Shown piece after piece: positions 36,522 to 36,753 of a DNA stretch of 64,000 nt. The notes under the pieces were generated by a model. That model was not told where the DNA came from. It searched no databases and worked only from the letters and a program-made list of their open reading frames with translations. The position numbers and the translations under genes were made by a program. Numbering within the stretch: the first letter of the stretch is position 1; each line of letters opens with the position of its first letter. Source of the stretch: a phage. Location of the stretch: assembly GCA_012474735.1 (NCBI GenBank), contig GCA_012474735.1_4085.1; one strand, 5' to 3'.

Positions 36522-36753
36522 TTTAATGTTTCCTTATCAGTGGTTGATGTAAGTATTATACTCGTTTACTTTCTATTGTCAAACTATTTTATCAGGGGAG
36601 TTTTTCGTATGTCTTACTCCTGGACTACTTAACGGGGTTACTTGTTTCGTTCCCCGTCCTGATGTAAAACATTATACTTGATTCTAAGTACAATGCAAGT
36701 ACTTTTTAAAAATAGTTTTCAGTACTTGATAGTACTAGCCACCAGCAAACAAT

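Follow-up and report, generated by a model that had tools for sequence, protein, structure and literature searches.

A conserved pseudoknot RNA element behind early promoters of a jumbo coliphage and of phage T7

What is encoded by the short interval between the two tandem sigma-70 promoters that precede the gene at 36246–36521, on the minus strand of a 64,000-nucleotide (nt) stretch of phage DNA (GenBank assembly GCA_012474735.1, contig GCA_012474735.1_4085.1; this whole stretch is called the window below)? The window belongs to an Asteriusvirus, a jumbo coliphage of the PBECO4/121Q type, and is 94–97.5% identical over 36200–37000 to PBECO4, 121Q, SHEFM2K and others. A preliminary description had proposed that the interval holds a conserved, structured regulatory leader without a start codon, and that two further copies exist in the window. 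The minus-strand sequence that it quoted lies exactly at 36586–36665, and the flanking tandem promoters are real, with consensus matches at 36698–36671 (TTGCAT-16-TATAAT) and 36582–36555 (12/12 positions). A near-identical copy is present at 47097–47180 and a diverged one at 43857–43924. In this study, the fold, the covariation and the distribution of this element were analyzed. The element is predicted to consist of a closing helix (P1) around an H-type pseudoknot, into which a further hairpin (P2) is optionally inserted, and its homologues reach past the related phages considered in the preliminary description to T7 itself.

When the covariance model R1 was run over the 64 kb with its filters off, only three copies were returned, all on the minus strand, namely W1 (36591–36663; 79.7 bits), W2 (47104–47178; 78.4 bits) and W3 (43864–43917; 69.7 bits), and the next match reached 11 bits; T7 and its relatives score 37 to 65 bits, and since R1 was built including W1, W2, W3 and T7-type sequences, the independent part of the evidence is that from regular-expression searches and MAFFT alignments. 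Each copy lies directly 3' of a strong sigma-70 early promoter on the same strand and 5' of a second promoter or a promoter remnant. The upstream promoter of W1 (36671–36707) comprises an A-tract or UP-like AAAAAG, a −35 hexamer TTGCAT (36693–36698) and a −10 hexamer TATAAT (36671–36676) at a spacing of 16, from which a start near 36665 is predicted; the proximal promoter (36555–36582; TTGACA-16-TATAAT) is predicted to drive the gene 36246–36521 without the element. W2 lies between an upstream promoter at 47186–47213 and a proximal one at 47068–47095, ahead of the gene 46424–47035, and W3 lies between a promoter at 43930–43957 and a degenerate promoter-like sequence (TTGATA-17-TAAACT, 43831–43854), ahead of the gene 43324–43806. 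These three downstream genes fall into PHROGs of unknown function and have no Pfam match above threshold. W1 and W2 are near-identical throughout the segment bounded by the upstream −10 and the proximal −35 hexamers, whereas the spacers of both promoters differ, which shows mosaic exchange.

In W1, the P1 strands AUCAGG (36658–36663) and CCUGAU (36591–36596) pair in the minimum-free-energy (MFE) fold; P1 covaries across the family, and its 3' strand is also supported by the arm-swap test given below. Between these strands are found P2 (ACGGGG...CCCCGU, 36632–36657), a variable and dispensable hairpin that the preliminary description had named the first hairpin; the conserved junction UAAGUAGUC (36623–36631), in which GUAGUC (36623–36628) is the 5' strand of the pseudoknot; the 5' arm of helix P3, GGAGU (36616–36620), containing the bases once read as resembling a Shine–Dalgarno (SD) sequence; the P3-loop segment GACAUAC (36607–36613), which forms the 3' strand of the pseudoknot through GAC:GUC and UAC:GUA with one bulged A; the A-rich pseudoknot loop 3, GAAAA (36602–36606; conserved ACGAAAAA); and the P3 3' arm ACUCC (36597–36601), assigned from the MFE fold and covariation. 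W2 has P1 at 47173–47178/47104–47109, P2 at 47145–47172 and P3 at 47129–47133/47110–47114, and its pseudoknot joins GUAGCC (47136–47141) to GGCACAC (47120–47126). W3 is a minimal form that lacks P2, with P1 GACG (43914–43917)/CGUC (43864–43867), P3 CCAG (43891–43894)/CUGG (43871–43874) and a pseudoknot between GUAGAC (43897–43902) and GUCGAAC (43881–43887). The numbers of pseudoknot pairs formed are 6/6 in W1, 5/6 in W2 and 5/6 in W3.

The single-sequence MFE fold of W1 (−21 kcal/mol, z = −2.8) contains P1 AUCAGG/CCUGAU, P2 ACGGGG/CCCCGU and P3 GGAGU/ACUCC, and thus both of the pairings proposed earlier (ACGGGG/CCCCGU and GGAG/CUCC); as a description of the full fold, this plain three-way junction has the three helices right and misses the pseudoknot. 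The nested fold of W3 is no better than those of shuffled sequences (z = −0.25), because the support for W3 lies in the pseudoknot and the family rather than in nested energy. The P1 helix of W3 alone is weak, being equalled by 93 of 300 shuffles. Furthermore, a change in the copy at 47.1 kb that had been described as compensatory and as extending the first stem proved to be an insertion of 2 nt (CT), by which an A-U pair is added, rather than a compensatory substitution. The true compensatory pair between W1 and W2 is U→C in GUAGUC together with A→G in GACAUAC, which keeps a pair of the pseudoknot, a feature absent from the preliminary description.

Across the family, the core consensus on the transcribed strand is UAAGUAG-NCN-(P3)-UAAGNCNNACGAAAAA, or, with the arm length, UAAGUAG-NCN-(5 nt)-(A)UAAGNCNNACGAA, in an element of about 55 to 75 nt. 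The common layout runs from the P1 5' strand through the optional P2 to UAAGUAG-N-C-N, the P3 5' arm (5 nt), (A)UAAG-N-C-N-N-ACGAAAAA, the P3 3' arm (5 nt), 0 to 3 nt and the P1 3' strand. The junction 5'-GUAGNC pairs with 5'-GN'C(N)NAC in the P3 loop, such that stem A of the H-type pseudoknot is the junction:loop helix and stem B is P3, with loop 1 of 1 nt, (A)UAA as loop 2 and GAAAAA as loop 3. P2 is absent in W3, in phage LTH01 and in phage Hallingskeid, and is replaced by other hairpins in L011, Munch and RaK2. The arms of the helices vary in pairs. Those of P3 are GGAGU/ACUCC in the W1/W2 lineage and otherwise GCCAG/CUGGU, CCAG/CUGG, GCCUG/CAGGU or CAGGC, GCUUG/CAAGC and ACUUG/CAAGU, and those of P1 are AUCAGG/CCUGAU (W1, W2), GACG/CGUC (W3), GACGG/CCGUC, GCGGC/GUCGC, CGGC/GCCG and ACCGAA/UUCGGU, with GUCAA/UUGAC, GUCAUC/GAUGAC, GUCAC/GUGAC, GUCAGA/UCUGAC, GUCGGU/ACCGAC and GAUUAG/CUAAUC among the T7-like phages. 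The middle pair of the pseudoknot also switches in concert: the triplets are GAC:GUC in most T7-likes, W3, L011 and LTH01, GUC:GAC in W1, LIMEzero, SalP_792 and L059, GCC:GGC in W2, muut, outra and L068, and GCU:AGC in RaK2.

These exchanges were quantified on ungapped, structure-blind alignments, one made with MAFFT from 33 distinct cores and a separate one of 29 T7-like sequences. Over the pseudoknot and P3 of the 33 cores, 95.3% of the cells are paired, compared with 82.4% in shuffles, none of which (0/500) reached the observed value, and with 21–36% when the register was slid by 1 to 3 columns; changes on both sides were found for six of the 11 pairs. P3 (5 base pairs, bp) is paired in 95.8% of its cells and has four of five pairs changed on both sides, the GGAG/CUCC of W1/W2 standing against CCWG/CWGG in the others, with pair 14–34 being UA in 21 cores and AU in 11. 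The pseudoknot is paired in 94.9% of its cells, and its pair 8–21 occurs as AU (23), UA (5) and CG (4). Among the 29 T7-likes, all five core pairs of P1 covary with three or four pair types each and a single unpaired cell, P2 (CCGG...CCGG) is 80% paired with three covarying pairs, and the overall value is 92.3%, against 79.7% for shuffles and 21–30% for slid registers. RNAalifold, supplied with no structure, returned exactly P1 and P3 from the T7-like alignment. In addition, when the P1 arms of 14 lineage representatives were swapped, cognate arms gave −7.56 kcal/mol as opposed to −5.09 kcal/mol, and not one of 20,000 permutations reached the cognate sum. G·U pairs (ten at P3 pair 11–37, plus others) would turn into A·C mismatches if the opposite strand were the folded one, and the structured molecule is therefore the transcript from the upstream promoter. 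An extra G and an extra C in muut, tried as a long-range GGGG/CCCC helix, needed no such helix once P1 and the pseudoknot had been defined.

Two points weigh against this interpretation. The structure was derived from the same sequences on which it was tested, and these sequences are phylogenetically related. Furthermore, in T7, T3-like phages and some others, the bases of the P1 3' strand double as the −35 hexamer of the promoter that follows, so part of the conservation is at the level of DNA. However, chance is unlikely, because several independent switches occur in differing backgrounds and the slid controls collapse. We conclude, with a probability of about 0.9, that the element is a conserved functional structured RNA. 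The covariation in homologues called for in the preliminary description is thus strong, and its idea of a conserved, start-less, structured non-coding RNA on the transcribed strand stands.

The part of that idea that falls is the sequestration of an SD sequence. An SD-like CAGGAG masked by CUCCCCUG had been taken as the functional core, but no SD sequence is found there in 26 of the 33 distinct cores, where the corresponding columns read GCCWG/CWGGY or ACUUG/CAAGU. The SD-like bases are confined to the lineage of W1, W2, A73 and EmilieFrey, and CAGGAG serves as the P3 5' arm, with CUCC as its partner, in the W1/W2 lineage only. As had been noted, AUG, GUG and UUG are all missing at SD spacing; the triplet found there is AUA in the first copy and ACA in the second, and it is part of the pseudoknot 3' strand. 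Sequestration is also unsupported because about 330 nt separate the T7 element from the first gene downstream and, in the window, a full second promoter separates the element from the open reading frame (ORF).

The same columns bear on two readings in which the RNA fold has no role. One holds that the interval acts at the DNA level or has no function, as UP sequences belonging to the following promoter, a scar left by recombination or a cassette that has been emptied (SD AGGAG, 6 nt, AUA). The promoter spacers around W1 and W2 are indeed mosaically swapped, the AGGAG–AUA spacing mimics that of neighbouring cassettes and, in T7, ACGAAAAACAGG is placed where an UP element of A2 would be and the P1 3' strand is the A2 −35 hexamer. 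However, the supposed SD and AUA are P3 and pseudoknot columns in all homologues, where they covary, which removes the emptied cassette; taking ACGAAAAA as an UP element works only for phages such as T7, in which the element directly adjoins the next promoter, and fails in K1F-like and jumbo phages, in which pairing is kept as the sequence changes at 7 to 50 nt from any promoter; and the G·U pairs are strand-specific. This reading is very improbable and is largely refuted. The other holds that a micro-ORF is translated, either in the sense direction (AUA CGA AAA ACU CCC CUG AUA AAA UAG) or in antisense, and both frames are present in W1. The antisense frame (36591–36631, plus strand) has an SD sequence GGGGAG followed, after 8 nt, by ATG TCT TAC TCC TGG ACT ACT TAA, with a GTG start in W2. 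However, the sense frame would start with AUA or ACA, W3, the T7-likes, RaK2 and LIMEzero conserve neither of the two frames, the substitutions track base pairing and not codons, and an antisense promoter is not evident; translation is hardly credible here, and the antisense frame is most likely a by-product of the RNA structure.

How far does the element extend? A BLAST search with the 83-nt leader gave matches of 87–95% identity in Vequintavirinae (A73, W70, A7_1, A5-4) and Stephanstirmvirinae (EmilieFrey, outra, muut), where the copies also lie between two promoters but different genes follow. Pattern scans and BLAST with the diverged copy added a Munch-like contig of 366 kb, Salmonella phage Munch, Klebsiella phages RaK2 and K64-1, Erwinia phage Hallingskeid, LTH01 of the Vequintavirinae, Pantoea phage LIMEzero, Yersinia phage phiA1122 and coliphage 13a (553–628); a first pattern scan of metagenomes gave mostly chance matches. 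In T7, the element occupies nt 533–600, between the annotated A1 (498) and A2 (626) promoters. BLAST of T7 498–600 retrieved 491 Autographiviridae records, including T7, T3-like and K1F-like phages, whose hosts are Escherichia, Klebsiella, Salmonella, Yersinia, Enterobacter, Citrobacter, Serratia, Erwinia, Cronobacter and Aeromonas, and the element was present in all ten representatives fetched and in all 48 IMG/VR contigs. Besides the Autographiviridae, the family includes early-region copies in four groups of virulent enterobacterial phages, namely Asteriusvirus, jumbo phages of the Munch/RaK2/Hallingskeid type, Vequintavirinae and Stephanstirmvirinae. It was found only in virulent phages of Enterobacterales and in one Aeromonas phage. 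No BLAST match to the element was obtained in 5,426 complete Escherichia coli genomes, and 185,579 species genomes gave seven matches, in unrelated metagenome-assembled genomes and within the number estimated for chance; a host or prophage origin and a host target were accordingly set aside.

The T7 interval has the same core, P3, pseudoknot and closing helix as the element of the window, and the same place after the first strong sigma-70 early promoter with a second promoter next, from which the two are judged to be homologous; it is not annotated as an RNA element in the records examined. Searches of Rfam 15 with the leader and with T7 480–930 gave noise and no family match, even at E values up to 10. 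In the literature on the T7 sequence, early-leader RNA, the pseudoknot and RaK2-like promoters, with subscription-journal papers lying outside the search, only descriptions of promoters were found and the element is unmentioned. The T7-likes differ from the window in that their element begins about 36 to 45 nt past the start, behind another hairpin, whereas in the window P1 begins at about +3 and an ordinary hairpin is inserted as P2. Moreover, their P1 5' strand (GUCAA and variants) forms the loop of a small covarying hairpin (CCGG...CCGG, CCAG...CUGG or CCAC...GUGG; T7 record L030, 506–552; columns 6–19 of alignment A4). P1 and P2 of the T7-likes could thus form a second pseudoknot or two mutually exclusive folds, that is, a co-transcriptional switch. 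The next interval of T7, between A2 and A3 (645–705), begins with GUCAACCG, contains UAAG...AUAAGG...GAAACAAAAC and has CGGUUGAC at its end, where the −35 hexamer of A3 forms the 3' strand; it may be a degenerate paralogue of the element that the covariance model does not detect. Cleavage of T7 RNA by RNase III at R0.3 would, we presume, release a leader containing the element.

The element also behaves as a mobile unit. In muut, a Justusliebigvirus (Stephanstirmvirinae; record L006), positions 1560–1925 are 90.5% identical over the whole stretch to 36240–36600 of the window; the proximal promoter and the gene 36246–36521 are almost identical and the upstream promoter is unrelated, which suggests a recent horizontal exchange between unrelated phage families with a breakpoint in or near the pseudoknot element. 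The gene behind the element in EmilieFrey and outra (MAKSKMFLGHKNK...) occurs in the window at 48134–48373 behind an ordinary promoter and without the element. The module of promoter and element precedes at least five unrelated genes, the same gene is found with and without it, and the element is nearly always followed by an independent promoter. Only three of the approximately 30 promoters of the window carry it, and only A1 of the three A promoters of T7.

What, then, would such an RNA do? In the mode of action that we favour, tentatively and with the odds somewhat against it, the upstream promoter and the pseudoknot would together be a self-contained unit that yields the RNA itself as its product. 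This RNA would be transcribed within seconds after the DNA enters, its template being located in the terminal repeat or at the left genome end, and would fold and bind a conserved component of the host as a protein-binding immediate-early RNA, acting as a decoy or a modulator; the second promoter would allow the downstream gene to be expressed independently of the RNA module. The RNA is favoured as the product because the element is gene-independent, is rare among promoters, almost always has a separate promoter after it, contains few unpaired conserved bases and is confined to virulent phages of Enterobacterales and one Aeromonas phage; base pairing to a target is disfavoured because few conserved bases stay unpaired. 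Somewhat more probable, yet still short of even odds, is the wider possibility that the first RNA of the T7-likes and of several large virulent coliphage families is a dedicated functional pseudoknot that represents a new class of immediate-early RNA, targeting a conserved enterobacterial machine before any phage protein is made and spreading as a promoter-plus-RNA module. Candidates for this machine include RNA polymerase, an RNase, an RNA chaperone and a defence sensor. As points to the contrary, the element is followed by neither a terminator nor any other defined 3' end, which leaves a discrete small RNA as a candidate only, and a position at the 5' extreme of a longer transcript suits a cis-acting role equally well.

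The main rival is such a cis-acting role, in which the nascent pseudoknot would bind the very E. coli RNA polymerase that transcribes it and render it resistant to pausing and termination, as put RNA does; the promoter-like sequence downstream would then be a sigma-70-dependent pause that gives time for folding, as has been suggested for HK022 putL. In support, a structured RNA of approximately 55–75 nt stands right after strong early promoters of phages that depend on the host polymerase, a −10/−35-like sequence lies 0 to 60 nt downstream in every lineage examined, and intrinsic terminators are located 0.6 to 2.2 kb downstream of each copy in the window. A precedent exists in an RNA of about 70 nt just past PL with a −10-like pause element (PMC9378689). 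However, the element has no homology to put and has a pseudoknot in place of two stem-loops, only the A1 transcripts of T7 and three of about 30 units of the window carry it although others cross the same terminators, and the T7-likes already have boxA downstream of all three promoters. We regard this rival as unlikely, though worth serious consideration.

A second alternative is that the fold guards early transcripts at the 5' end from RNase E or from 5'-end-dependent decay, or that it marks a processing site. The 5'-proximal position suits this role, which is probably also that of the simple GC-rich hairpin about 5–10 nt past the start with which nearly every other cassette of the array opens. 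However, these simple hairpins suffice elsewhere in the array, the role needs neither invariant loop bases nor a covarying pseudoknot, the T7 element lies at about +36 behind another 5' hairpin, and transcripts from the proximal promoters lack the element; protection or processing is improbable as its function. More improbable still is a ligand-sensing, riboswitch-like aptamer built on the H-type pseudoknot. The A-rich third loop and the invariant junction bases resemble those of small aptamers such as preQ1-I and SAM-II, but the Rfam searches gave no family and there is no expression platform, with neither a terminator nor a conserved SD sequence or start codon. No terminator-like site (GC-rich hairpin with a U-run), and thus no attenuator, lies inside any of the three copies, and a hammerhead or other small ribozyme, a known riboswitch and ToxI were discarded for lack of an Rfam signal.

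The three copies belong to an array of approximately 30 early gene cassettes that spans about 50.15 to 30.97 kb of the minus strand, with approximately 30 strong sigma-70 promoters of the form AAAAAGTAC-TTGCA/TTGACA-16-TATAAT; nearly all of these are followed by gttttACATnnAG, a GC-rich hairpin (GGGGAGAAnnnTTCTCCCC), an SD sequence and ATG. The hairpin GGGGAGAAnnnTTCTCCCC, about 5–10 nt past the predicted start and before the SD sequence, occurs in 21 copies over 30926–50134 (for example at 36180–36225, 33323–33368 and 45150–45195, minus strand), and the hairpins of the cassettes are probably 5' stabilisers. In the related phage fEgEco12, copies of the element and the positions homologous to the array lie inside a direct terminal repeat of 20,993 bp (PMC13070987), and the array of the window is therefore most likely an early region carried in the terminal repeat. 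The initial transcribed sequence of the array, ACATCGAGAGGGG, resembles the start of the T7 A1 transcript (ATCGAGAGGGA...TCCC), and for this reason the cassettes and T7 A1 may share ancestry. The window contains no tRNA genes and no Rfam family at the gathering threshold.

Other repeats were observed around the copies. Identical intrinsic terminators (AGCCCACCTTAAACAGTGGGCT plus a T-run) at 44009–44030 and 43281–43302 (minus strand) flank the W3 unit on both sides, which is thereby a self-contained cassette of terminator, promoter, pseudoknot, gene and terminator. A composite repeat is present on the minus strand at 31481–31575, 33749–33843, 36753–36847 and 40845–40872, one copy being directly upstream of the W1 promoter; it consists of a 12-bp hairpin AAAGGGATTGACTCCGGTCAGTCCCTTT (terminator-like, with a weak U-tract), an embedded promoter-like TTGACT-17-TATTAT and a conserved tail TAGCCCACAGGGTGCATAAATGTATCTA. 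On the plus strand, 54885–63537 comprises seven tandem units of about 1.2 kb, each with a promoter-like TATAAT, a strong SD sequence and an ORF; the ORFs begin with MLPFGRM(V/I/M)..YGNI.P, and the units form a paralogous gene array. Five 145-nt repeats at a spacing of about 450 nt (10882–12910) and around ten repeats of 50–87 nt (23716–29894) probably mark paralogous small genes.

Few viruses have been studied as well as T7, yet a structured RNA appears to be encoded in the 60 nt that separate its A1 and A2 promoters; this RNA has covariation support comparable to that of curated RNA families and no Rfam entry. This RNA is probably one of the first functional molecules made by T7-type phages, and the element has moved among at least five phage groups as a module before unrelated genes. 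An action on the host RNA polymerase would make it a second, independent case of put-type control by RNA, with a possible bearing on transcription-driven genome entry. Binding to another host factor would make it a tool for takeover or anti-defence at the RNA level, deployed before translation. In either case, the element merits annotation in the hundreds of phage genomes that find use in therapy and synthetic biology, and fragments of the T7 A1 promoter that reach to about +100 would also carry it.

Among known systems, the leaders of T4 gene 32, E. coli rpsO and the alpha operon contain H-type pseudoknots that are sites of protein binding. These are gene-specific autoregulatory operators at the regulated start codon, whereas the present element is gene-independent and lies apart from ORFs. 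A positional link exists to boxB–boxA of the rrn and lambda type, as the elements of LIMEzero, L068 and Dev-CD-23823 lie 12 to 45 nt upstream of a boxA-like CGCUCUUUA(A/U)ACAA; such boxA-like sites were observed in LIMEzero (record L032, 905–945, a stretch that the record labels 'Pantoea specific promoter'), in Dev-CD-23823 (record L039, about 420–470) and in L068. In T7, boxA lies further downstream of the element, and the window has a single boxA match, with two mismatches and at the level of chance. A boxB hairpin is much simpler than the element, and the link is one of position only.

The array as a whole resembles the promoter-early stem-loop (PeSL) regions of T4-type phages in its repeated strong sigma-70 promoters, AT-rich upstream tracts, GGGG...CCCC stem-loops, small ORFans and mosaic exchange (PMC2839356). 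However, the stem-loop of PeSL is a terminator upstream of the early promoter (PMC2839356), whereas the hairpins of the window stand about 5–10 nt after the predicted start and have no U-run, and the pseudoknot is a separate, rarer module (three of about 30). A likeness is also seen to putL and putR of HK022, which are likewise structured, non-coding RNAs of about 70 nt right after a phage early sigma-70 promoter and followed by a −10-like sequence (PMC9378689). These act without a phage protein (PMC9378689), as the present element would. The put RNA binds the zinc-binding domain of the beta' subunit and suppresses pausing and termination in cis. When the covariance model was run on the whole HK022 genome with its filters off, only chance-level matches were obtained (E values of 1.4 and 3.8), none of them at the early promoters. 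The put RNA has two long stem-loops in a V shape with a triplex in stem I (PMC9378689) and is present on both early operons, whereas the element described here is a closing helix with an H-type pseudoknot and follows a minority of the promoters.

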